A DNA stretch of 64,000 bases from Escherichia phage AV112, in sequence record OR352942.1. One strand, 5' to 3'. Made by a program: the position numbers and the translations under genes. Shown here one piece after another: positions 3,546 to 64,000 of this stretch. Below the pieces are notes generated by a model. It was given only the letters and a program-made list of their open reading frames with translations, was not told the origin of the DNA and searched no databases. Numbering within the stretch: position 1 is the first letter of the stretch; each line of letters opens with the position of its first letter.

Positions 3546-3570
3546 AAAAAAAGGGGACCAAAGTCCCCAA
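3546..3570 (-). terminator. rho-independent terminator downstream of rIIB
   Basis: Minus strand GGGGAC-tttg-GTCCCC followed by TTTTTTT. Confidence 0.6.
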
Positions 3571-4530: not shown

Positions 4531-6744
4531 TTATTTGGCCGCTTCCACGGCCTTCATGAATTTAACGATTTGAGCGACTTGTTCTTTAGAAAGAGTACCA
4601 CGTCGTCCCATGTAGTCTGACACAATATGATAATTGGTTTCGAATTCAATAACCATTTTATCATCATTATCGTAAGCATTATCTTTAAGCTTATCGAAAA
4701 TTTTAGCACACAATTCTAACTTCTTATTCAGTTCTGTATTAGTAGCACCTGCGAATCGATTCCATCCCCAACGATTATTTACTGTTGAGAGTTTTGCAAA
4801 ATCTTTACTGATTTCTTTGTTTTTAGAGCTAAAATACTTACTAAGGAAGTTAAGCTCTTCATTACGAGTAATATGATTCAAATAAGGCTGTGCTCTACGA
4901 CTTGGTGATACATACTCATCATAATCCACTTTATCGATTAGCGTAATATAGTCATTAATTGATTTTTCGAACAAGCATTCTACTTCACCAAGTTTACGAA
5001 CTTTCTTAGCAATCTGTGGACGAACTACAGTGAACTCTTTAATACCTGACAAATCAGCAATACGGGTCAAGAAATTGGAGTCATAGTTCAACCAACCTTT
5101 ATCTGCGTCAAGACATTCAGCATTAGAACGATTACGAACTATAGCATAACCTTGGATTTTATCAGCTTCACTCGCTGGAATAAAGAGATCTTCTGATACC
5201 CAAACATCGTTTTCATTCTTAAAGAACCGATGAGCACTTGGGGATTTAGGACGAGGCCCATTAGAACGAGTCTTGACTTCAATCCATGGCTTAACGATTT
5301 GTAAAAGCTCTGAAGTCTTGTACATGTTAATGTTGTCGCCATCAAAGATAACTTTAAGGCGTTCCAGAAGTTTCATTGCATCTTCGTCTGTAGGGTCAAC
5401 GAATAGTACGCTTTTACCAAAACCGCGTGGAACTTTACCGGTTAATTTAACCTCGTCTTTAGACATTTCAATTGAATTAAGAGCTCGCATTAATGGAACA
5501 CGTCCCTTAACGTCGTCAATAACAATTTCAACGTTTTTAATGTTAATACCAATCAGACTGTTAATTGAAATAGTTGCAGATGAGCTACCACTTTCACGAA
5601 TACGACGAAGACGAGGGTCTTCAATGATATCGTATACGACGCCGAGATTACACCATTCAGGTCCCATTTTAAAACGTTTGTACAACTCTGAATAAGTTAG
5701 TTGTTCTTTAGAGTATTTCAGTGATTCAATATTAGACCCAGCCTTTTCCATGTATTTACGAGCAGTATAGCCAAGAGAATCAATTTCACGGAACACATGA
5801 CGCGGGTATTTACAATCAATCCATTTCTTAGAATCTTCAGCGAACAATTTAGCATCGATTTCTGCAACGCGTTTATGGATATTTGCTACTGTACGTTTAT
5901 CAAATGACAATGCTTCACGAGACGGGGCTACATCTAGTTCACCCATAGGGAATTTAATATAAGCTGTAGTGCATCGCGTCATCATCCATGTTTGTTCTTT
6001 AATAACACTTCCGATTGGATATACAATACCACCATAAACAGCCATGATATTACCACGTTCACCCCATGGAGCTTCCTTGGCTAAATAAACATCGTCGAAT
6101 TCCGGGAAGTATTTGATATCTTTAACACCACGAACTTCTGCAATATCACCGAGAGGACGCATAACATATGCAATTTCAGATGCGAACTTTTCAAAATCTT
6201 CTGGGTTAACCGGTACAACTACTTCTACACCAGTACGATCATCAGGACCCATCTTATCTACGAAGGTTGGCTTAATCTGTGGACCACTGTCATCTTGATA
6301 AATTACATAACCACGAACTTCACCGTTGTGATAAGACGTAAGGTTAAACGTATCGGTATATGCTAGTGGAGCTTTAGAGCCGAGACCGAATCCACCAATG
6401 AAATCGTTACTCGATGTTTTAGTTGAAGCAAAATATGAGTTATAGATTCCTGGCTCTTCGTCATTACCTCGAATGGTGAAATCACTCATACCAGGACCAA
6501 AGTCTCGAACTACAAAACGTGGGTCTAAACGACCTGGGGCCTGAACAATAAACTTATCAGTGCAACCATTAAGAATTTGACCATCGATACAGTTTGTGAT
6601 TAATTCACGTACACAAGCCAATTCTTTGTTTGTATAAAGGTCATTAGACAAAATCTTATAAACTTTGCTATTGCCTTGAATAGTAAATGCTGTGCTCTTA
6701 CCGCCTGAACCAATAATCGTTTCTTTAGCCGTTTCAATAATCAT
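4531..6744 (-). CDS. rIIA: rIIA protein (737 aa) with N-terminal GHKL-type ATPase fold
   Basis: GHKL-like motifs ELITNCIDG, VRDFGPGM and GGFGLGSKA; size close to T4 rIIA; synteny with rIIB and 39. Confidence 0.8.
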   Translation of the reverse strand: MIIETAKETIIGSGGKSTAFTIQGNSKVYKILSNDLYTNKELACVRELITNCIDGQILNGCTDKFIVQAPGRLDPRFVVRDFGPGMSDFTIRGNDEEPGIYNSYFASTKTSSNDFIGGFGLGSKAPLAYTDTFNLTSYHNGEVRGYVIYQDDSGPQIKPTFVDKMGPDDRTGVEVVVPVNPEDFEKFASEIAYVMRPLGDIAEVRGVKDIKYFPEFDDVYLAKEAPWGERGNIMAVYGGIVYPIGSVIKEQTWMMTRCTTAYIKFPMGELDVAPSREALSFDKRTVANIHKRVAEIDAKLFAEDSKKWIDCKYPRHVFREIDSLGYTARKYMEKAGSNIESLKYSKEQLTYSELYKRFKMGPEWCNLGVVYDIIEDPRLRRIRESGSSSATISINSLIGINIKNVEIVIDDVKGRVPLMRALNSIEMSKDEVKLTGKVPRGFGKSVLFVDPTDEDAMKLLERLKVIFDGDNINMYKTSELLQIVKPWIEVKTRSNGPRPKSPSAHRFFKNENDVWVSEDLFIPASEADKIQGYAIVRNRSNAECLDADKGWLNYDSNFLTRIADLSGIKEFTVVRPQIAKKVRKLGEVECLFEKSINDYITLIDKVDYDEYVSPSRRAQPYLNHITRNEELNFLSKYFSSKNKEISKDFAKLSTVNNRWGWNRFAGATNTELNKKLELCAKIFDKLKDNAYDNDDKMVIEFETNYHIVSDYMGRRGTLSKEQVAQIVKFMKAVEAAK

Positions 6745-8150: not shown

Positions 8151-8192
8151 AATTAAGCCTTATTAAAATTAAAATGAAACTCCCGAAGGAGC

Positions 8193-10010
8193 TTAGGACA
8201 TCCATTCTTTACGAAGTTCTGAATCGTCACCCAACAACATTTCAAAGAGTTCTTTCCAATTTTCAGGAAGTTTAACTACGTCGTACACAGGGTTCTGAAT
8301 CATTTCACGATATTCTGACTTTTCAAGGGAGCCTAATCCCTTGATGTATCGAATACTATGCTTAGGAAGTGTATCTTTAGCTTCTTCATACTCAGCTACA
8401 GTATAAAACCATTTTTGAGTTTTGCCAATTTGTGCAATAATTACAGGCGTTTTAACAAAGCGAATACGTCCTTGTTCAAACAATTCAGGCCAATTACTAA
8501 AGAAAGCAAGCAAAGCCGGATAAATACTTCCAAGACCATCATGATCGGCATCGGTCATAATTGCAATATTACGATAGTTCGTATTCTCTGCCTTTTCACC
8601 AAGAATAAGACCTGTGATAGCACAGATATCAAAGAGCTCTTTGTTCTTCATCATATCGGCATATGACATACCCCAGCTATTCATCACCTTACCACGTAAT
8701 GGGAATCCGCCGTGTAGTTCACGGTCACGAACATCAATGAGATAACCAATTGCCGAATCACCTTCTGTTAAAAACAATGTCGTATCTGCATCTTTACCAC
8801 ATTGGTTAGCTTTAATATGCTTATGAACCTTAGCTTTAGTTGCCTTTTTAGCTGCTTTAGTTTCTGCAGCCTTTTCTGCCGCCAATTTACGAGCTAATGC
8901 TGCTTCAACAATAGGCATAATCAAGGCTTCGTTTTTAAGAAGTGCCTGAGCAATTTTCTTAGCATCTAATTGGATATGATTACGAATATCACCATACGTT
9001 GACGTTAAACGTTCTTTAGTCTGAGAATCAAAACGCATGTTGCTCATGTCTCTAATAAACATCAACATTGTGAGGCATTCTTTAACACGAGCTTTAGTGA
9101 CTTCAATACCCTTATATTTCTTTTTAATGCCAGGCAAAAGATGTTCGCAAATATCATCCATTACACATTCAACATGATGACCACCATTTTTAGTATGGAT
9201 GTTATTCACATAAGTTAAATGACGGAAGCCATCTGGTGATGTTGTGAATGCTATAGAGACTTTATCATTTTCTTGAATGATGTTATCTTCACCAAATTGT
9301 TTAGCAAATCGTTTAAAATTACCATCAACCTTTTTACCATTAAATGTGAACTTGATATCAGGATAAACGACTGCCAATGTTTGAAGACGGTCTAAAGTAA
9401 TATCTAAATAAATTTGAGATAAATTATGCTCTTCAAATGAAGAGAAATCAGGAGTGAAGATTACTTTAGTGCCTTTACCTTTAGATTTCTTAGAAGACCA
9501 TGATTTGTTTTCCATTCCGTTTGAACAGTTAACAGTGATTTCATTTTCGCCATCTGACGTGATGCCTGTAAACAACGTAGAGAAGATATTAGTTAAACTA
9601 CTCCCGACGCCGTTCATACCACCAGTCTTGCGTTCAGAGTCGTCACCAAAGTTACCGCCAGCCTTTGGAATAGTCCAGGCTGCTACAGGCCCAGGAATCT
9701 GTTCACCATTTTGGTCGGTGACCATTGCTTGAGGAATACCACGTCCGTTATCTTCCACTGAGACTTGATTATTTTTAATTTGCACATCAATTTTATTTGC
9801 AAACTTAAATGATGTACGAATAGCTTCATCAACCGAGTTGTCAATAATCTCATCGATTAATTTAACCAGACCAGGAACATATTCAACTTGTTGATATTTA
9901 CCAAACAAAAAACGCTCGTGGGCTTCTTTGGCCGAAGAACCAATATACATGCCACTACGTTTCTTAATATGTTCTACATCTGACAATACCTTAATTTCAT
10001 TTTTAATCAT
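8193..10010 (-). CDS. 39: DNA topoisomerase II large subunit (GyrB-like ATPase), unsplit 605-aa form
   Basis: GyrB-type N-terminus with motifs IDEIIDNSVDEA and EDNGRGIP plus a Toprim-like C-terminal half; no separate gene 60. Confidence 0.9.
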   Translation of the reverse strand: MIKNEIKVLSDVEHIKKRSGMYIGSSAKEAHERFLFGKYQQVEYVPGLVKLIDEIIDNSVDEAIRTSFKFANKIDVQIKNNQVSVEDNGRGIPQAMVTDQNGEQIPGPVAAWTIPKAGGNFGDDSERKTGGMNGVGSSLTNIFSTLFTGITSDGENEITVNCSNGMENKSWSSKKSKGKGTKVIFTPDFSSFEEHNLSQIYLDITLDRLQTLAVVYPDIKFTFNGKKVDGNFKRFAKQFGEDNIIQENDKVSIAFTTSPDGFRHLTYVNNIHTKNGGHHVECVMDDICEHLLPGIKKKYKGIEVTKARVKECLTMLMFIRDMSNMRFDSQTKERLTSTYGDIRNHIQLDAKKIAQALLKNEALIMPIVEAALARKLAAEKAAETKAAKKATKAKVHKHIKANQCGKDADTTLFLTEGDSAIGYLIDVRDRELHGGFPLRGKVMNSWGMSYADMMKNKELFDICAITGLILGEKAENTNYRNIAIMTDADHDGLGSIYPALLAFFSNWPELFEQGRIRFVKTPVIIAQIGKTQKWFYTVAEYEEAKDTLPKHSIRYIKGLGSLEKSEYREMIQNPVYDVVKLPENWKELFEMLLGDDSELRKEWMS

Positions 10011-10032
10011 GTTGTCTCCTCGTTATGAAGGT

Positions 10033-10060
10033 ATTCTATCATCCGAAATCTAAAGCAAAA
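10033..10060 (-). promoter_or_regulatory. MotA-dependent middle promoter for gene 39
   Basis: Minus strand tttTGCTTTA (MotA box) - 12 nt - TAGAAT; the MotA box directly abuts the upstream terminator U-run. Confidence 0.55.
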
Positions 10061-10075
10061 AGGGCCGAAGCCCTT
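10055..10075 (-). terminator. UUCG-tetraloop terminator hairpin
   Basis: Minus strand AGGGC-ttcg-GCCCT followed by TTTTT. Confidence 0.55.
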
Positions 10076-11903: not shown

Positions 11904-11958
11904 ATTATTCTCCTCTGGTTGATATGGTTATAATATCAAAACCAGAGGAGAAGTAAAC
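11904..11958 (-). promoter_or_regulatory. PeSL-like early promoter/stem-loop cassette
   Basis: Minus strand GTTTAC-N17-TATTAT; perfect 12-bp inverted repeat TCTCCTCTGGTT (11909-11920) / AACCAGAGGAGA (11940-11951) enclosing the -10 and containing the SD. Confidence 0.55.
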
Positions 11959-11962
11959 AACT

Positions 11963-19407: not shown

Positions 19408-19465
19408 ATTGTTCTCCTCTTGAGTAAGTAAGAATATCTTAACACAGTTTTTAGTGTTTGTAAAC
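19408..19465 (-). promoter_or_regulatory. early promoter cassette
   Basis: Minus strand GTTTAC-N18-TAAGAT; inverted repeat ACAGTTT/AAACTGT. Confidence 0.4.
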
Positions 19466-19472
19466 TGTAGAA

Positions 19473-19498
19473 ACAAAAAAAGGAATCCCGAAGGATTC
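19473..19498 (-). terminator. rho-independent terminator downstream of soc
   Basis: Minus strand AGGAATCC-ttcg-GGATTCCT followed by TTTTTTTG. Confidence 0.65.
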
Positions 19499-19508
19499 CT
19501 TAAATTAT

Positions 19509-25242: not shown

Positions 25243-25301
25243 AATGTTTTCCTCTTGGTTTGTGTAAGTACATCATATCATGCCTAGAGGAAGATGTAAA
25301 C
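25243..25301 (-). promoter_or_regulatory. early promoter cassette
   Basis: Minus strand GTTTAC-N18-TATGAT; GAGGA Shine-Dalgarno. Confidence 0.45.
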
Positions 25302-25305
25302 CCCG

Positions 25306-25330
25306 AAAGGAGACCGAAGTCTCCTTTTTG
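25306..25330 (-). terminator. UUCG-tetraloop hairpin immediately downstream of gene 41
   Basis: Minus strand AAAGGAGAC-ttcg-GTCTCCTTT. Confidence 0.5.
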
Positions 25331-26782: not shown

Positions 26783-27124
26783 TTAAAAGAATTTAAATTT
26801 TTTCTTGGTCCGTTCATTAAAAGCTTGTTGTACTTGCATTGTAACACATTTTTCAACATGCGGTGCAAGTTCTGCTTTTCTGTCCTGGTCAAGAACTGCA
26901 AAGTCCATTACGATTTTACCATCAACCCAGTCTAGTTTTGTAATATAGACTATATGATGAGAACCATCTTCAAGTGTAATCAGAATCTCTTGAATGACAT
27001 TTTCCATTGCTGAACGGATAATTTTAAGAGATTCATTAAACACTCGTTCTTTGCGAATGTCTTCCCCTTCCGAAGAAGGGGATTCATCAACGATTTCTAG
27101 ATTTAAATCATCGAGATTATTCAT
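26783..27124 (-). CDS. 40: gp40-like protein (about 113 aa; start at MNNLDD overlapping the uvsX stop)
   Basis: Position between uvsX and 41 as in T4; call by synteny only. Confidence 0.45.
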   Translation of the reverse strand: MNNLDDLNLEIVDESPSSEGEDIRKERVFNESLKIIRSAMENVIQEILITLEDGSHHIVYITKLDWVDGKIVMDFAVLDQDRKAELAPHVEKCVTMQVQQAFNERTKKKFKFF

Positions 27125-34977: not shown

Positions 34978-37689
34978 TCAAAAATCGAACATATCGAACA
35001 GAGATGCTTTCTTCTCGTAATCGAGTTTCGCTGCTGATGTGAATCCTTCAAGTGGTTTAATAAATGTCTTCTCAAGGAGAACAGTGTAGTCCATCCAATG
35101 AAGTACGTCGTCTTTAATTAAATCTGTGATTTCAGTACCAGAAGGCCATGCGATACATTTATCACCGAATGGGTTTCCTTCACGTAAAGGCAGAACATAT
35201 ACTTTTTCACCTTCTACAACTTGTGGTGCATCGATATTACCTTTGATAGCACGGTTATACGTCAGAATTCCACGAATATGGAATGGGCATTTAGGACCAG
35301 GGAATCCACCTACATCATATTTAGCAATGTTATTCGCAGAAGATACTGACGCGATGCTAATATAATTCAATTGACGGAATTCTTTTTCAAACTCTTTAAA
35401 ATATTCTTGTAATGATTCTTCGCCTTCCTGAAGCATACGACGAATACATTCTTTAAGAGCTTTCTGTACTGCTTTAGGAGTCGAAGATTTCTGAGTCTCT
35501 AGACCCATGATTTTGAGTTTAGGCTCAGCGTATCTGGTTCCTTCCATATCCCACACGTTTAATGCATAACGTTTCTTACCAGTCCAGAATCCACCAATAC
35601 CTTTAGAACCGAGTGGAGGCCCAGCGATAGCTTCTCGGTCCATGAACATTAAGTGTTGTTTATTGTTCATGTATTCACACATTTCACGGAAACCTCTATC
35701 AATAGCTGGTTCCATACGTTCACGTGCAAACTTATCTAAGAAGTCTACCCAATGGTTGGTATCACGGAATTTAGATTCACCAACCTTATCGATAATTTTA
35801 TCAGCAGATACGTAAATAGAGTCTGTATCACCATAAAGAACGAAAGCTTCACCTTCTGTGCCACAAACTTCATTCAGATATTCATTAACTTTACGTTCAA
35901 TCCACTGTAAAGCCATTTGCCCGAATGTTGTGATTGCAGTAGCATTACGCAAATCGTAATAACGGAACCAAACGTTGCCAAGTGCACCATAAAGTGAGTT
36001 GATAAGCAATTTACGGTTAATTTGGGCAGTCATACCTGCAACTTCAGTACGTTGAGCTCTAAACAACATTTCATTAAGAGATTTAGCAGACAACTTTTTA
36101 ATCTTTTCTTTAATCTCATCACTGAAGTCGAAACGATAATCAACATCTAATGGTTCGTCAACAGAAAGATTAGGATTATGCAATGCCTCTTTAATTATTT
36201 CACCATTACGTTGAGCTGCAAGCATGTAACCTTTATGTTCTTTACGTTGATTAAAGACCTTAGTGATTTCAGTTGGAACAACACCGTCACGGTCTTTATA
36301 ATACATCATGCCGTTAGGAGAACAACTGTACACATCAGAAGGACGTTCAGCAACAGCGTTAATATAATCATGTAATGGAGCTACTTTAAACGTTCCTGCT
36401 ATTGTTTCTGGGCTAATATTCACTTGGCGAATAATACTTGGATACAGAGATGTAAGGTCGAAACTCATTACATATTTGTATCGATTTGGAATAGGTTCCT
36501 TAACAAAAGCGCCGGGATAAGGTTGAACCGGATGAGAACGACCTTGTGGAATCACCTTGTTCTGCTCTTTAAGGCTATTAAAAATAATAGCATCCCATGT
36601 TTTAATTGGGCTAAACACAGATTGAATCTGTATCTTAGCATAATAACCCATGTCCAAACTCAAGTTGATGAACTGACGTTTAGCATCAATTTGCAATACA
36701 CGATACACGTCGATAATGTTATAAGAAATATATCGTTGGTGATTGCTTTCACGAAGCTTAGAAATAGGGCCGTCATATTTCAGTTTACCAACGTTCAATT
36801 CAAATTCTGAAATGTAATCCAGAGAATACGACGGTTGATTGGTAAAAGAGAATTTTTTGTAAAGGTCAATGTAATCAAGAACAGAGATACCGAACAATGT
36901 AATGATTTCACGAGAACCATACATGTTTTCGATAACTTTAACACGAGTTTTACGATGTGGTGATAAACGTTTCGCAGTAGATTCGCCAAAAATATTCTTG
37001 ATTCGGTTATACACATATGGAATATCAAATGACTCAACGTTCCATCCAGTCAAAATGACAGGAGTTTTCTGTTGCCAGAAGTTGAGATATTCCATCAACA
37101 ATTCTTTTTCGTTATCGAACGGCATATAAATGATTTTATCGATAATTTCGGATGGGACTTCATCACCGCCTTGTTCTTGAAGCTTAGCCGCAATTTCGAT
37201 AGACCATTCTTCCACATTCCCGTATGGAGAATTCAAAAGGTCAAATACGTAGAACCTGTCGTCAATTGAGTCATAATGAGTGATAGCATCAATCGGATGT
37301 TTTGCTTGTGACGGCTCAGGGAACCCGTCTGGAGATGTTACTTCGATGTCGAAGTTAGCCACACGAATTTTTGTATGGTCGTATTTGATTTCATAGTTAT
37401 AAGTGTCAGACAAATACGCCAATTTGAAATCGTCCATGCCAAGTGCTTCAAGTCCGATATCTTCCATGCGTTTAATCCATTGGGAGGCATCACGCATATT
37501 GGCGAACAACTTACGAGTACACGGCTTACCGTAGATATCGAAATATTTCGTAGCCTGACTTTCCGGACAATGAGCAAACAGTGATGGTTTATATTCTACT
37601 TCACGAGTACGTTCACGGCCGTTAGAATCGATGTAACGTTCAAAAATTGAATCACCAATCTGTTCAACCGTTAAGTAAAATTCTTTCAT
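34978..37689 (-). CDS. 43: DNA polymerase (family B) with 3'-5' exonuclease, 903 aa
   Basis: Exo motif FDIEV, polymerase motifs SLYPS and YGDTDS; size of T4 gp43. Confidence 0.95.
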   Translation of the reverse strand: MKEFYLTVEQIGDSIFERYIDSNGRERTREVEYKPSLFAHCPESQATKYFDIYGKPCTRKLFANMRDASQWIKRMEDIGLEALGMDDFKLAYLSDTYNYEIKYDHTKIRVANFDIEVTSPDGFPEPSQAKHPIDAITHYDSIDDRFYVFDLLNSPYGNVEEWSIEIAAKLQEQGGDEVPSEIIDKIIYMPFDNEKELLMEYLNFWQQKTPVILTGWNVESFDIPYVYNRIKNIFGESTAKRLSPHRKTRVKVIENMYGSREIITLFGISVLDYIDLYKKFSFTNQPSYSLDYISEFELNVGKLKYDGPISKLRESNHQRYISYNIIDVYRVLQIDAKRQFINLSLDMGYYAKIQIQSVFSPIKTWDAIIFNSLKEQNKVIPQGRSHPVQPYPGAFVKEPIPNRYKYVMSFDLTSLYPSIIRQVNISPETIAGTFKVAPLHDYINAVAERPSDVYSCSPNGMMYYKDRDGVVPTEITKVFNQRKEHKGYMLAAQRNGEIIKEALHNPNLSVDEPLDVDYRFDFSDEIKEKIKKLSAKSLNEMLFRAQRTEVAGMTAQINRKLLINSLYGALGNVWFRYYDLRNATAITTFGQMALQWIERKVNEYLNEVCGTEGEAFVLYGDTDSIYVSADKIIDKVGESKFRDTNHWVDFLDKFARERMEPAIDRGFREMCEYMNNKQHLMFMDREAIAGPPLGSKGIGGFWTGKKRYALNVWDMEGTRYAEPKLKIMGLETQKSSTPKAVQKALKECIRRMLQEGEESLQEYFKEFEKEFRQLNYISIASVSSANNIAKYDVGGFPGPKCPFHIRGILTYNRAIKGNIDAPQVVEGEKVYVLPLREGNPFGDKCIAWPSGTEITDLIKDDVLHWMDYTVLLEKTFIKPLEGFTSAAKLDYEKKASLFDMFDF

Positions 37690-37720: not shown

Positions 37721-37747
37721 GTTTGTTGATGAACTTATTATACTCCA

Positions 37748-37767
37748 AATGGGACCGAAGTCCCATT
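37748..37767 (-). terminator. UUCG-tetraloop hairpin immediately downstream of regA
   Basis: Minus strand ATGGGAC-ttcg-GTCCCAT; a TATAAT -10 (37737-37742) follows. Confidence 0.45.
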
Positions 37768-37770
37768 GCT

Positions 37771-38139
37771 TTAATTACCAATTGTATATTTTGCTTTCAA
37801 AGTCCAGTCATCTTTCTGTTTAAAAGAGATAACACGGAAGTTATTAGTCAGACCAAACAGATCTTCACGAGCAGAGTCTTCAATAACAATCAATCCCCAG
37901 TCTTCAAGCAACTGAGCAATCGAATCACGTCGCTGATAGTCTTCACCATCAATATCAACCTGACGTCCATCCATACGCAGCATTTCTTTAAAGTGGACGA
38001 TATAGTATTTACCTTGCTTTTGGAGGATATGACAAGACTGGTAAAGGACTTTATCCTTGTTATTAGCGATGCCCATACGGGTCAAAGTCTCTTTGACTTT
38101 CAGAAAATCTTCAGGGTTCTTCAATTTAATTTCAATCAT
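37771..38139 (-). CDS. regA: RegA translational repressor (122 aa)
   Basis: 122 aa, identical length to T4 RegA; syntenic between 62 and 43. Confidence 0.8.
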   Translation of the reverse strand: MIEIKLKNPEDFLKVKETLTRMGIANNKDKVLYQSCHILQKQGKYYIVHFKEMLRMDGRQVDIDGEDYQRRDSIAQLLEDWGLIVIEDSAREDLFGLTNNFRVISFKQKDDWTLKAKYTIGN

Positions 38140-39670: not shown

Positions 39671-39745
39671 GTAATTTTCCTCATTAACATTAAACTGGAG
39701 GATTTCTCCTCCATAATCATATCACAATAAACGTAAAGCTTTGAC

Positions 39746-40432
39746 TTAGAAGTCGTGAGTAGAATCGGCTTCCATAGCAATAACATAACTTACTTGAGAG
39801 CTTTCAAACTTGGCTGCAACTTTATCACCAGCTCCCCACAACATTACTTTATAGTTACCTGGCTGGATTTTCATATTAGCCATATTGATTACGAAGTTAA
39901 AATTGTTAGAACCGTCATAATCGGTAAGAGTCAAAGAATACTTAGGACGAGTTAGTCCAGAATCTTCAACTTTATTATAGCCATTGATAACAATTTTACC
40001 ATCTTTATTTGTAATAGCAATTGTATCAATCTGAAGACCACGTGAAACTCGAAGCAATTGTTGAAGGTCTTCAGCTTTAATTTCAGTAATCACAGAAGCC
40101 ACTGGGAATTGAATTGGTTTATTAGGAAAAACAATGGTGCTCTTGTCAGCGGCAGGCCAATAAACCGTGGAACGTGTATCTGCAATTTTAATATTACCAT
40201 CGGTGTGCATTGAAATTTCAGCATCATCAGACACTAGACTCAAAATGCTTAAGAAGCTATTCAAATCATAAAGTGCTACGTCAAAATCAATTTCATCGGA
40301 GATATTTGCTTCCGCATAAGTGGTGCCATTAACTGCACGAGTCATAATAAATTTACCTTGACTCAGCAGAATGCCGGAGTTAATAGAGGCAAAGTTTTTC
40401 AGAATAGCGATAGTATCTTTAGACAGTTTCAT
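39746..40432 (-). CDS. 45: sliding clamp (about 228 aa; start at MKLSKD)
   Basis: Size and N-terminus match T4 gp45 as recalled; TATAAACT late-like element upstream. Confidence 0.8.
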   Translation of the reverse strand: MKLSKDTIAILKNFASINSGILLSQGKFIMTRAVNGTTYAEANISDEIDFDVALYDLNSFLSILSLVSDDAEISMHTDGNIKIADTRSTVYWPAADKSTIVFPNKPIQFPVASVITEIKAEDLQQLLRVSRGLQIDTIAITNKDGKIVINGYNKVEDSGLTRPKYSLTLTDYDGSNNFNFVINMANMKIQPGNYKVMLWGAGDKVAAKFESSQVSYVIAMEADSTHDF

Positions 40433-43697: not shown

Positions 43698-43926
43698 TAC
43701 ACGCTTCAGCCATTTTAAGAATAGAGCCAGGAGTATCGTTGTCCATTATATTAAAGCTAAATTCAACAGCCCAGTCGGTGCAGACATGAACTGCTTTAAC
43801 TTCATTACCTTCAACGCGTAATGGCTCAATCCAATACTTGATAGTGTTCTCGAATCCATCATCATCTTTAACGTCCATTTCAACTTCAAGCCTGAGTCCA
43901 GCATTGTTAAATTCATCTAAAGTCAT
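43669..43926 (-). CDS. hypothetical acidic protein (85 aa)
   Basis: ORF between gene 47 and the HNH gene. Confidence 0.4.
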   Translation of the reverse strand: MTLDEFNNAGLRLEVEMDVKDDDGFENTIKYWIEPLRVEGNEVKAVHVCTDWAVEFSFNIMDNDTPGSILKMAEACIEDAYNDED

Positions 43927-44942
43927 TGTGTTGCCTCAATATAAAGTTCGTTGGAATATTTGACCAGCGCTTCTCTGTCTTCGTCTGAGATATCTGGAAT
44001 CGCGTCAATATATTCTTTAATGATATCTTGAAGAGATTTAATCTCGATTTCCTGGTCGTCATCAGATTCAACACTGTTATCAACTTTAGAAACCATACGA
44101 AGAGAGTGAACTACTTTTTCAAGTTCAGATTCAAACTTAGTCAACTCTGAATCAATTTCTGATACTATAACACGTACGGCTAGATTAGTATAATCAGAAT
44201 AATTGATTTTGCCTTTAAACGGATAAGTGATTCGTCGATGCCATGTTGTTTCGTTAGGAATAAATTCCATACGTTCAACATCAGTGTCAAATACCCAAAA
44301 TCCGCGCGGGTCGTTCTCATCACCTGCAGTAAGGGTCCATGGTGTCCCAATATATTTGACGTTAGCAGCTTCAGAGATTGTGTGGAAGTGGCCGGACCAG
44401 ACTTGTTTATAGGTCTTTAAGAAATCAGGTTCAAGCCCATGAGACTTCATTCCTTTATAGAAATAAAAACCATTCAGTTCCCAGTGCCCAACACAATACG
44501 CTGCGGAAGAAGTCTTGATGTGCTCTAAGATTTCACCTGTATTTTCTTCGCACATCCATGGAACGATATCAATCAGACATCCGTCAAAATCTACAGTAGT
44601 TGGATGCTCGTAAATAGTAAAGTTTTCAAATTGAGTTAACAATTCAGAAACAGTGTTAGGTGTTATTGTATTCTTAAACGCCATGTCATGGTTTCCTATC
44701 GTGACATGAACGTGAATGCCTGCTTTAGAAATCATATCAACGATTTCACGATTGAATTCCATTGTACGATGTGTTATTGCTTTACGGACGTCAAACCAAT
44801 CACCGTACTGAATCCAAGTTTTAATCCCATGTTTCTTAGAGTATTCAATTGCTTGACGAATACCATCACGTTGAATATCTTGAACCCATGGGTCGTCTTG
44901 TTTGACTCCGATATGGAAGTCGCCTAAGTGCAAAATTTTCAT
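43923..44942 (-). CDS. 47: recombination endonuclease subunit (Mre11/SbcD-like phosphoesterase), 339 aa
   Basis: Calcineurin-like motifs LHLGDFH, GDWFD, GNHD; size equals T4 gp47. Confidence 0.9.
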   Translation of the reverse strand: MKILHLGDFHIGVKQDDPWVQDIQRDGIRQAIEYSKKHGIKTWIQYGDWFDVRKAITHRTMEFNREIVDMISKAGIHVHVTIGNHDMAFKNTITPNTVSELLTQFENFTIYEHPTTVDFDGCLIDIVPWMCEENTGEILEHIKTSSAAYCVGHWELNGFYFYKGMKSHGLEPDFLKTYKQVWSGHFHTISEAANVKYIGTPWTLTAGDENDPRGFWVFDTDVERMEFIPNETTWHRRITYPFKGKINYSDYTNLAVRVIVSEIDSELTKFESELEKVVHSLRMVSKVDNSVESDDDQEIEIKSLQDIIKEYIDAIPDISDEDREALVKYSNELYIEATQ

Positions 44943-44966
44943 ATTATTTCCTCATTAGTTAATTCA

Positions 44967-44993
44967 TTCTATCATCCGCTTATAAAGCAAAAA
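44967..44993 (-). promoter_or_regulatory. MotA-dependent middle promoter for gene 47
   Basis: Minus strand tttTGCTTTA - 11 nt - TAGAAT, immediately after the terminator U-run; same architecture as the gene 39 promoter. Confidence 0.55.
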
Positions 44994-45014
44994 AAGGAAC
45001 TCCGAAGAGTTCCT
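44985..45014 (-). terminator. rho-independent UUCG-tetraloop terminator
   Basis: Minus strand AGGAACTC-ttcg-GAGTTCCT followed by TTTTTTG. Confidence 0.65.
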
Positions 45015-48158: not shown

Positions 48159-48306
48159 TTTGTTTTCCTCTATAGTAGATGGTTTAATCTTAACACATCT
48201 ATTGAGGATGTAAACTGTTTTATGAAAATATTTTCGATTTGAGAGGGGCACAAGGAGATAGTGAAGTGAAGATTCCAATGGATTATATTAGAAATGAGAT
48301 AAAGAA

Positions 48307-48325
48307 GACCAGGCGGCACCTGGTC
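48307..48325 (-). terminator. terminator-like hairpin at the 3' end of the nrdH-like gene
   Basis: Minus strand GACCAGG-tgccg-CCTGGTC followed by a T-rich run. Confidence 0.4.
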
Positions 48326-60657: not shown

Positions 60658-61647
60658 TTATTTATAGTAAGAATTATGATTTTCGAGATAGACTTGTTCA
60701 AGGAAGTCATCCCAGAAACTCATATCTACTTTTTGTTGCATACCGTTCTTGGCAGCTTGTTCTGATGCATGTTCAACTTGGTCAACGATATCTTCTAGGA
60801 ATTCTTGTACAGTTTTAAACGTATGTTTACCAAGCTTAACATCGAGAATAAATGGAGCATCCTGAAGTGGGTAAACCAGGTCGCCGGTTTTATAAATTTC
60901 TAATAGTTGAAGTCCACCACGACATGCATGACTCAATGCTTTCCAGTCAATACCTTCGTTAGCTTCTGCCTTACGAGCACGTTCACCATAGTTCTCTTCC
61001 AGTTTAACCAGGATGGCATTGAACTCTTTATTGGTTAACGTGTCTTGGAATTTACGGTCTAACAGATTATAGAATGTTTGCTTACCTGTTTTCTCGTTTT
61101 CAGTTTCAACCCACGAAGCAAATTCACCTACAGGCAGAACATTCTTCATATGTGATAAACGAATTACTGCACCATTATCAAAGTATTGTCCCCATTCATT
61201 AGAACGTTTAAGGGCTTGACGAAGAACAGCCAGTCGAGAACCCTTGACACCGTATTTAGAAGCTTGTTTACGGACATACCCTAAATAAGATTTCATGTTA
61301 GTGGTATAGAAACGAGACCTGTTATCTTGAATATACTTCCATACATCAGGCAAATCGGATTTAACTACTAAACTTGGTGGAGTGTGAAGCATATCTAATG
61401 CGACGGTTTCGCCATCTGCAGCTAGTTTAAAGAAATATTTGAGACTATACAACTCATGGTCCACGTCGTCTTTTGTGTTCTTAGAAGATGTGTTATTTGT
61501 GTTCTTGCTCATATGTTCTTTAACGTTACCGGTCAAGATATCACGAGCATGAGGGACATAAATTTCTTTAAAATCGACGTCAGATTCAGGAGTAGACGTT
61601 CCATAAAGGTGGCTACCAAAGTAGCCTTTCATAATTGTTTTCATCAT
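60658..61647 (-). CDS. nucleotidyltransferase-fold (pol-beta superfamily, MNT-like) protein, 329 aa
   Basis: N-terminal GSHLYGTSTPESDVD matches the G-S-x(9-13)-D-x-D NTase motif. Confidence 0.45.
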   Translation of the reverse strand: MMKTIMKGYFGSHLYGTSTPESDVDFKEIYVPHARDILTGNVKEHMSKNTNNTSSKNTKDDVDHELYSLKYFFKLAADGETVALDMLHTPPSLVVKSDLPDVWKYIQDNRSRFYTTNMKSYLGYVRKQASKYGVKGSRLAVLRQALKRSNEWGQYFDNGAVIRLSHMKNVLPVGEFASWVETENEKTGKQTFYNLLDRKFQDTLTNKEFNAILVKLEENYGERARKAEANEGIDWKALSHACRGGLQLLEIYKTGDLVYPLQDAPFILDVKLGKHTFKTVQEFLEDIVDQVEHASEQAAKNGMQQKVDMSFWDDFLEQVYLENHNSYYK

Positions 61648-62945: not shown

Positions 62946-63003
62946 TTTGTTCTCCATTTGTTTTGGTAGGATTACTATATCATAGTCCTACCAAGACGTA
63001 AAC
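62946..63003 (-). promoter_or_regulatory. PeSL-like early promoter/stem-loop cassette
   Basis: Minus strand GTTTAC-N18-TATAGT; inverted repeat GGTAGGA/TCCTACC; GGAG Shine-Dalgarno. Confidence 0.5.
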
Positions 63004-63236
63004 TACCGATTGTGTTTTAAATGTTGATAAAGTTCTTCAACTTGTTTAGGGTCCAAAACAATTAAGTCATTTTCTTGGCGAAGATAAATCCATCCCTTAT
63101 CCCCAGGGCCATTTTTACAAAACATCACCACCGTATCATCATCTTCAGCGCTTTCAGGTAAAAGTTCAAGTACACCGTCTTCAGATTTTCCAGTATAATC
63201 GTAAAGCATAATGTCCTCACATAATCTCGTTAACAT
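63003..63236 (-). CDS. hypothetical acidic protein (77 aa)
   Basis: ORF-track ORF. Confidence 0.4.
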   Translation of the reverse strand: MLTRLCEDIMLYDYTGKSEDGVLELLPESAEDDDTVVMFCKNGPGDKGWIYLRQENDLIVLDPKQVEELYQHLKHNR

Positions 63237-63396
63237 ACATTTGTAATTCGGTGTGGGCTTCGGCCATCTTTTTCATAGCTTTGTTAATGTCGATGTCTCC
63301 ATCTTCGCATCCATGAGCATTTTCCCAATCAGATACCGCATTAGCGTACTCTTCAATCAAAAACATTAACTTAGAAATTTTTTCTTTACGTGTCAT
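63217..63396 (-). CDS. hypothetical protein (about 59 aa; start at MTRKEK)
   Basis: ORF-track first ATG lies in the PeSL cassette; GGAG Shine-Dalgarno before the internal ATG. Confidence 0.35.
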   Translation of the reverse strand: MTRKEKISKLMFLIEEYANAVSDWENAHGCEDGDIDINKAMKKMAEAHTELQMYVNEIM

Positions 63397-63452
63397 AACG
63401 TTCTCCTCTAGTAAGTAAAGACTACTATAACACAACCTGAGGAGAAGTAAAC
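63397..63452 (-). promoter_or_regulatory. PeSL-like early promoter cassette
   Basis: Minus strand GTTTAC-N17-TATAGT; inverted repeat TCTCCTC/GAGGAGA. Confidence 0.5.
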
Positions 63453-63457
63453 TGCTA

Positions 63458-63492
63458 AACGCAAAAAAGCCCCAACCATAAGGAAGGGGCTA
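63458..63492 (-). terminator. rho-independent terminator-like hairpin
   Basis: Minus strand AGCCCC...GGGGCT followed by TTTTTTG. Confidence 0.45.
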
Positions 63493-63497
63493 GTAAA

Positions 63498-63800
63498 TTA
63501 GATAGATGTAGGCTCTAATTTTATTTTCATGAACTCGGCAAATTGTCTGGCAGTTTTTATGCCTTGTTCATGACATTCAAATGCATCATCACAGGGGCTA
63601 TTTTTGTAATGCTTTGCCATATACTTATAGAATTTTTCAGAATTCTCGACATTTTGAATTTCAAACAAAGTATATACGTTTTTAATCCCTGATTCCATAA
63701 AGTTATCAAAATATGGGTCGGTATACGCAGTACCAACGTTAGGAGTTGTTGCTGCAAAAAACCCCAGCATCGCCATGACAGCTATCGCTCTTAAGGCCAT
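63498..63800 (-). CDS. secreted protein with signal peptide (100 aa)
   Basis: MALRAIAVMAMLGFFAATT signal peptide; strong AGGAGG Shine-Dalgarno. Confidence 0.45.
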   Translation of the reverse strand: MALRAIAVMAMLGFFAATTPNVGTAYTDPYFDNFMESGIKNVYTLFEIQNVENSEKFYKYMAKHYKNSPCDDAFECHEQGIKTARQFAEFMKIKLEPTSI

Positions 63801-63812
63801 ATAGGCCTCCTG

Positions 63813-64000
63813 TTAATTTTGGCCAGTATTTATTTTTCGCCTTTGGACGGCCTTAACATCTGTGAGGTATTTTTCCAGCTTGCGCTTGCGTGTATAATCA
63901 GCTTTAGAACCAGTTTGACGGATATCCTCGTTTAAATGAGAAATAGAATGTCCTAATTCTCTTCGGATTTCATCCAATTGGGTTACAGTAAGATTACGAA
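63813..64000 (-). CDS. hypothetical protein, C-terminal fragment (N-terminus beyond window end)
   Basis: Open minus-strand frame running to the window edge, ending ...[20 protein letters not shown]. Confidence 0.35.

Follow-up and report, generated by a model that had tools for sequence, protein, structure and literature searches.

Stem-loops abutting predicted MotA-dependent middle promoters upstream of genes 39 and 47 in Escherichia phage AV112

Two short gaps between genes in Escherichia phage AV112 raise the question of whether a terminator-like hairpin and a middle promoter can share the same bases, and of what such an arrangement would do for the genes on either side. We addressed this question in a window of 64,000 nucleotides (OR352942.1), in which coordinate 1 corresponds to position 64000 of phage AV113 and nearly all genes are borne by the minus strand. 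Escherichia phages AV113 and vB_EcoM-RPN187 match the region around the first gap (site 1) with 100% identity, and most other records matching this stretch are 95 to 99% identical. The annotated matches that were checked (AV113 and RB69) belong to the genus Mosigvirus, the RB69 group. A preliminary description had placed the two composite modules upstream of genes 39 and 47, and gene comparison confirmed the identity of both downstream genes. The features that the argument needs are as follows.

10076-10074, minus strand: TAA stop of the upstream 141-aa ORF (from the sequence)
10060-10075, minus strand: site 1 hairpin AAGGGC-UUCG-GCCCUU, ΔG of -7.9 kcal/mol (folding and terminator scan)
10061-10057, minus strand: site 1 T-run, continuing into the MotA box
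10060-10051, minus strand: site 1 10-bp MotA box TTTTGCTTTA, 10/10 match to the consensus
10033-10041, minus strand: site 1 extended -10 element TGaTAGAAT, with TG at 10041-10040 and TAGAAT at 10038-10033 (from the sequence)
10008-10021, minus strand: Shine-Dalgarno sequence GAGGAG at 10021-10016 and gene 39 ATG at 10010-10008 (from the sequence)
8193-10010, minus strand: gene 39, fused 39+60 topoisomerase large subunit, 3' of site 1
45015-45013, minus strand: TAG stop of the a-gt.2-like ORF (from the sequence)
44995-45014, minus strand: site 2 hairpin AGGAACTC-TTCG-GAGTTCCT, ΔG of -10.3 kcal/mol (folding and terminator scan)
44995-44989, minus strand: site 2 T-run (seven T), leading into the MotA box
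44992-44983, minus strand: site 2 MotA box TTTTGCTTTA, 10/10 match to the consensus
44966-44974, minus strand: site 2 extended -10 element TGaTAGAAT, with TG at 44974-44973 and TAGAAT at 44971-44966 (from the sequence)
44940-44953, minus strand: Shine-Dalgarno sequence GAGG at 44953-44950 and gene 47 ATG at 44942-44940 (from the sequence)
43923-44942, minus strand: gene 47, SbcD/Mre11-like nuclease subunit, 3' of site 2
11925-11960, minus strand: T4-type early promoter GTTTAC-N17-TGaTATTAT upstream of motB (promoter scan and gene order)

At each site the gap from stop codon to ATG holds, in this order, a hairpin, a MotA box, a -10 element, and a Shine-Dalgarno sequence. The gap measures 63 bp at site 1 (minus-strand reading, TAAATAAGGGCTTCGGCCCTTTTTGCTTTAGATTTCGGATGATAGAATACCTTCATAACGAGGAGACAACATG) and 70 bp at site 2 (GGATAGGAACTCTTCGGAGTTCCTTTTTTTGCTTTATAAGCGGATGATAGAATGAATTAACTAATGAGGAAATAATATG). 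The layout first described, a hairpin and U-run leading into TGCTTTA, 11 to 12 nt, and TAGAAT, was recovered with all of its elements at both sites on the minus strand; the range given for the second site (44967-45014), however, was one base short and missed the last T of the -10 hexamer. The spacer between the MotA box and the -10 hexamer is 12 nt at site 1 and 11 nt at site 2. Both stems are G+C-rich, carry a C(UUCG)G loop, and overlap the stop codon of the upstream ORF: the TAA stop contributes its last two bases as the first two A residues of the site 1 hairpin, and the site 2 hairpin, which reads AGGAACUC-UUCG-GAGUUCCU as RNA, overlaps the TAG stop. Uninterrupted U residues follow both hairpins (five at site 1 and seven at site 2), and the terminator scan accepted the U-rich tracts just 3' of the stems (UUUUUGCUUUA and UUUUUUUGCUUUA, respectively). 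At site 1, T10061 and T10060 pair with the AA of the stem base. That the terminator U-tract doubles as the A/T-rich 5' part of the MotA box, as had been proposed, is literally true of the sequence, and the elements predicted in RB69 overlap likewise. Both hairpins were detected by a general terminator scan. Their folding z-scores were modest (-3.5 at site 2) and weak for site 1 (-1.5), where the stem has only four G-C pairs. We did not rely on these scores; the comparative data are the stronger evidence.

The promoter half of each site conforms to what is known of middle promoters in T4, for which the consensus is (a/t)(a/t)(a/t)TGCTTtA, a spacer of 12 ± 1 bp, and TAtaaT, with TGn present in about half of cases (Hinton 2010, PMC2988021). 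The box, the spacing of 12 or 11 bp, the TAnnnT hexamer, and the preceding TGa all fall within this consensus at both sites. The genes for the two regulators are located just outside the window, and their products score above the Pfam cut-offs: MotA at AV113 62957-63589 (MotA_activ, 132.7 bits; MotCF, 34 bits) and AsiA at AV113 60808-61080 (111.4 bits). Among the identified middle promoters of T4 are P39 (start at 5349), P47 (36576), and PmobB (38682) (Hinton 2010, PMC2988021; Guild et al. 1988 tabulated there). T4 has AAAGGCCTTCGGGCCTTTAGCTTTA-N12-TATAAT upstream of gene 39 and AAAGGGCTTCGGCCCTTTAGCTTTA-N12-TATAAT upstream of 47.1/47, and when we checked the T4 sequence, the listed starts of P39 and P47 lay exactly 7 nt after these -10 hexamers. 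Because the starts fall at that distance, the mapped T4 promoters share the architecture of sites 1 and 2. The GenBank and RefSeq records of T4 carry no promoter or terminator features. With consensus matches, MotA and AsiA both encoded, and T4 counterparts mapped, the earlier suggestion of MotA-type middle promoters stands, and sites 1 and 2 are well supported as predicted MotA-dependent promoters. Transcription is predicted to start near A10026 at site 1, by analogy with T4 P39, and near A44959 at site 2.

Within the window, the pattern TGCTTNA-N11-13-TANNNT occurred 16 times where 3.7 were expected, and a hairpin with its end within 8 nt upstream of a MotA-type promoter occurred three times where 0.08 was expected. 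None of 300 dinucleotide shuffles reached three hairpin-promoter composites, and 2 of 300 reached two. This custom test replaced a search for TTCG-N4-12-TGCTTTA, which missed site 2 by one base and returned two irrelevant matches. The third composite match, TGCTTTA-N13-TATTTT at 37767-37792 on the plus strand, adjoins the palindromic hairpin between regA and gene 43 and lies antisense to regA, where it may be either coincidental or an antisense promoter. No Rfam family reached its gathering score anywhere in the window.

Comparison with T-even-type relatives extended these results beyond a single genome. The composite was kept in all 12 distinct gene-39 upstream regions (gp39 N-terminus 74 to 99% identical), always in the order stop codon, hairpin, T-run, TGCTTT(A/T), 12 nt, and -10 element. 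Where genomes with both loci were compared, it was present at gene 39 in 14 of 14 and upstream of gene 47 in 12 of 14. The stems themselves varied among relatives (GGGC/GCCC, GGCC/GGCC, GGAGC/GCTCC, GGAGCC/GGCUCC with a UACG loop, and AGAGCC/GGCUCU). Across 12 tetraloop hairpins, double-sided changes were seen at five of the six pairs and 100% of cells could pair; the covariation score was reached in 0 of 500 shuffles and no slid register came close, with the caveat that the hairpins had been selected for folding and aligned on the loop, which favors structure. Loop-centered 16-mers were used for this comparison in place of MAFFT alignments of whole modules, which put the nonhomologous stems out of register. 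Because the stems vary with compensation while the order of elements stays the same, these alignments indicate that the stem-loop structure is under selection. Distant relatives (≤61% identity) are without the module and have sigma70-type promoters instead. Separately, in two relatives (L077 and L085 in our set), the 110-nt region upstream of gene 47 contains a hairpin followed by an early-type promoter, GTTTAC-N17-TATAAT, with no MotA box. There, the class of promoter appears to have been swapped behind a conserved stem-loop.

The idea that the two sites are copies of a reusable unit fared less evenly: the layout does recur, though sparsely, whereas a co-evolving repeat family is contradicted by MotA-box variants that do not co-vary within genomes. 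Among the 29 middle promoters mapped within the first 50 kb of T4, a hairpin abuts only three (P39, P47, and PmobB), so the fusion is not a general rule for middle promoters. Besides the two fused sites, the 64-kb window contains a weak third one (48325-48282) and a pair of sites that combine a hairpin with an early promoter (19501 and 25327). Sites 1 and 2 stand at borders between variable ORFs and core genes, not within hyperplastic regions. They share TTTTTGCTTTA, and about 25 bp are common to them in all. The 13-mer CGGATGATAGAAT occurs on the minus strand at 10033-10045 and 44966-44978 and nowhere else in the window. RB69 is 100% identical to the window at site 1 and has three differences at site 2, where the -10 of its P47 is TAAAAT; the exact identity of the 13-mer is therefore specific to the strain lineage, and a small conversion event or constraints common to both promoters might account for it. 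As a firm claim, we rejected concerted evolution or gene conversion between the modules. The TAAAAT of RB69 P47 speaks against it, as do P47 orthologues of other genera that already have CGGATGA, P39 orthologues that have GGGA before the -10, and box variants (TGCTTTA versus TGCTAT) that do not co-vary within genomes. Since the variants do not co-vary, there is no sign of frequent exchange, and the modules are best read from these sequences as two old, independent orthologous series and not as a homogenized repeat. On the upstream side of the gene-39 module, at least four unrelated ORF families were found among relatives (up to six if two short singleton calls are included), and because these unrelated families abut the module, homology breaks at the hairpin.

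Other hairpins in the window vary in what follows them. CTTCGG was counted 32 times, against a shuffle expectation of 16. On the minus strand, nine copies cap stems of 6 to 11 bp (1230, 8194, 10075, 19501, 25327, 37767, 45014, 60340, and 27082); these are mostly intergenic, with the copy at 27082 lying within an ORF. Four intergenic minus-strand hairpins stand without a promoter, at 1418-1437 (after ndd), 3553-3568 (after rIIB), 8177-8194 (after gene 39), and 39696-39713 (between 45 and 44), and in these cases the next Shine-Dalgarno sequence or ATG is within about 15 to 35 nt. The weak composite at 48282-48325 (minus strand) follows a glutaredoxin (nrdC-like) gene and consists of GACCAGGT-GCC-GCCTGGTC and then TTCTTTA-N12-TATAAT; a good early promoter lies about 90 nt beyond it (about 48215-48185). 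The region upstream of uvsX was considered as a third fused site and rejected, the hairpin there being about 13 nt from a weaker box. Two minus-strand sites are of the type called PeSL, a term applied to "composite terminator/promoter sequences," of which the form with a Mot box has been named PmSL (Comeau et al. 2014, PMC4122927). One, at 19436-19501 after soc, has a UUCG hairpin and T-run (19501-19480) followed by TTTACA-N17-TAAGAT, and the other, at 25250-25327 after gene 41, has a UUCG hairpin and T-run (25327-25306) followed by TTTACA-N17-TATGAT. Finally, in the gap between regA and gene 43 (37737-37767, minus strand), the hairpin AATGGGAC-TTCG-GTCCCATT occupies the position expected for the MotA box of gene 43. 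The gene-43 promoter reads gACTTcg, 13 nt, and TATAAT (37742-37737, minus strand), with a core ACTT as in T4 P46. In the mapped P43 of T4, a hairpin (GGGGC-TTCG-GCCCC) also overlies the box, so that the GCTT core is made up of a stem G-C and two loop T residues.

What would arrive at these hairpins can be read from the order of genes. No obvious terminator lies between the early promoter upstream of motB and position 10075, so an early RNA covering motB-cef-goF-39.2-ORF would reach the site 1 hairpin, and the motB promoter is the likely source of such transcripts. Their arrival would fit the known dual route to middle-gene expression: in T4, RNA for these genes comes both from early transcripts that are extended into them and from MotA promoters (Hinton 2010, PMC2988021). 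We consider it likely that both sites are compact control cassettes of the PeSL/PmSL type, lying between genes and each combining two jobs, within 63 bp at site 1 and 70 bp at site 2. In the early RNA, the C(UUCG)G hairpin and U-run would form right past the stop codon of the last early ORF, where it would serve for intrinsic termination or attenuation and would leave a stable 3' end either way. In the DNA, the same T-run would supply the A/T positions of the MotA box (-35 to -33), with the core GCTTTA about 30 bp upstream of the start. RNA polymerase carrying AsiA-remodeled sigma70, together with MotA (sigma appropriation), would use this box with TGnTAGAAT, and transcription of gene 39 or 47 would restart about 7 nt past the -10 with a leader of about 16 nt. 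Read-through would then make up the "delayed-early" share of expression, and the promoter the MotA-dependent "middle" share. For this phage, we infer termination at both hairpins, along with its efficiency, the start sites, and the timing.

Could a palindrome and a promoter-like string have come together by chance, with no function for the combination? The strings are short, A/T-rich phage DNA is rich in -10-like and T-rich matches, and sigma70-like matches occurred at background level. Yet the excess of composites in the window, the conservation across genera with compensated stems, and the mapped promoters at the T4 orthologous positions make this extremely improbable, and for practical purposes the comparative data refute it. 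A different account accepts the promoter and assigns the hairpin another task, that of a 3'-end protector or processing stop against 3'-to-5' exonucleases, with most polymerases reading through; the contact between hairpin and MotA box would then merely follow from the lack of room for both elements in about 65 bp between genes. Such a role would agree with the view that mapped 3' ends of T4 prereplicative transcripts are ends of stable RNAs and not termination sites (Patterson-West et al. 2018), with the expression of middle genes by early-transcript extension, and with the short stem of site 1. It would also agree with the T4 orthologues, where the U-tract is poor, short, and interrupted (UUUAGCUUUA) and termination may therefore be weak. 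We found no 3'-end or termination data for these sites and no genome-wide T4 3'-end map in the accessible literature. Against this account, the present phage has five and seven uninterrupted U residues, the RB69 copies received a TransTerm score of 100, PeSL stem-loops placed in reporter fusions were reported to stop transcription efficiently (Arbiol et al. 2010, PMC2839356; Comeau et al. 2014, PMC4122927), and about 30% of transcripts end at a comparable hairpin in T4 mobE (Edgell et al. 2010, PMC2988022). Moreover, terminator and protector roles are not exclusive. We regard protection with general read-through as an unlikely explanation of the hairpin.

The modules might instead matter mainly in evolution, as short conserved PmSL linkers that are preferred recombination points for gene swaps beside genes 39 and 47, swaps that would leave expression undisturbed, in line with what has been proposed for PeSLs. 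The unrelated ORF families that abut the hairpin-promoter-gene 39 unit are what one would expect from such swaps, as are the T4 block of mobB and a-gt located between two modules and the early promoter that follows the hairpin at the gene-47 position in the two relatives above; the PeSL model and its mini-circles have been published (Arbiol et al. 2010, PMC2839356; Comeau et al. 2014, PMC4122927). However, the homing endonuclease mobB could have inserted independently, the modules have only their 25 or so bp in common, breakpoints at gene ends are expected anyway, and the box variants do not co-vary within genomes. A role in recombination would also add to the transcriptional role and not replace it, and we find it doubtful as the main function. 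A further proposal concerns regulation and is compatible with PmSLs as recombination joints at which cassettes such as a-gt/mobB came or went beside core genes. Since one stretch of base pairs serves as both U-tract and MotA box, binding of MotA and AsiA-modified polymerase to the box could alter the fate of incoming polymerases. If this were true, a roadblock at the point of pausing and release would make termination time dependent, and the gene would switch from early read-through to purely promoter-driven expression as MotA accumulates. Such MotA-dependent termination would bear on the old question of how "delayed-early" and "middle" expression are separated in T4, but we judge it improbable.

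We return to the proposed two-job control cassette, which is ordinary regulatory architecture of the T4 family. Our additions to it are modest: one set of bases explicitly serves as U-tract and as the A/T part of the MotA box, the stems are compensated across genera at both loci, and the RB69-type gene-47 module corresponds on its 5' side to the PmobB module of T4. The case also illustrates that real regulatory architecture is recoverable from raw sequence.

Three T4 promoters, P39, PmobB (P-alpha-gt.1), and P47, have the same order of stop codon, UUCG hairpin, T-run, GCTTTA, 11 to 12 bp, and -10, at the 39.1/39, a-gt.2/mobB, and a-gt/47.1 junctions. T4 differs from the present phage in having A for T before GCTT (TTTAGCTTTA), a shorter U-run, and TATAAT for TAGAAT. 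It also has mobB, a-gt, and 47.1 inserted, and a second copy of the module there serves gene 47. The 3' end of a-gt.2, the hairpin, the T-run, and GCTTTATAA at site 2 align with the a-gt.2/PmobB junction of T4, after which T4 continues with mobB, a-gt, a second hairpin with P47, 47.1, and then gene 47. By this alignment, the 5' half of site 2 is orthologous to T4 PmobB and not to T4 P47. The mobB gene encodes a free-standing HNH homing endonuclease and is transcribed from PmobB, the promoter upstream of it (Edgell et al. 2010, PMC2988022). As a side observation, the -10 hexamer of P47 contains the ATG annotated for T4 ORF 47.1 (T4 36583-36588; L006 4583-4589), so an RNA started at P47 cannot encode 47.1 and only read-through could.

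For RB69, the parts of Nolan et al. (2006, PMC1524935) that we consulted, including additional files 4 and 6, list both halves at both loci: the TransTerm terminators "60plus39<--ORF005c" (5535-5546) and "47<--a-gt.2" (40044-40061), each with a score of 100, and the predicted middle promoters Pm:5538 (5498-5538) and Pm:40046 (40007-40046). The promoter and terminator coordinates in these lists overlap by 3 to 4 nt at both loci. The two types of element stand in separate tables, and in the parts consulted their fusion passes without comment.

The resemblance to PeSLs and PmSLs lies in the plan of the whole cassette, an intergenic unit from stop codon to ATG with a stem-loop, then a promoter, a Shine-Dalgarno sequence, and a start codon, flanked by variable ORFs. 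The role suggested for PeSLs is to halt transcription that arrives from upstream and start it afresh (Arbiol et al. 2010, PMC2839356; Comeau et al. 2014, PMC4122927). They carry early promoters with sigma70 -35 and -10 elements and are numerous in hyperplastic regions. In PmSLs, which were reported in Vibrio phage nt-1, a TGCTT Mot box and a -10 replace the -35/-10 pair, and both of our sites conform to this form. Unlike PeSLs, the present sites stand at the borders of core replication and recombination genes, number two to three per genome region, and show no homogenization within genomes. With C(UUCG)G intrinsic terminators they have in common the G+C-rich stem, the UUCG loop closed by C-G, and the immediate 3' U-run, but here the run is broken by GC after five to seven U because it enters the MotA box. 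The nrdA-mobE-nrdB region of T4 offers a functional parallel, in which read-through is limited by a partial terminator and the essential gene that follows is transcribed again from a middle promoter downstream (Edgell et al. 2010, PMC2988022). In that region the terminator is within the mobE coding sequence, apart from the promoter, whereas at sites 1 and 2 the two share bases. Both sites thus belong to an already known kind of element, the PeSL/PmSL type, which has been cataloged as a class, with the T4 promoters mapped and both halves predicted in RB69.
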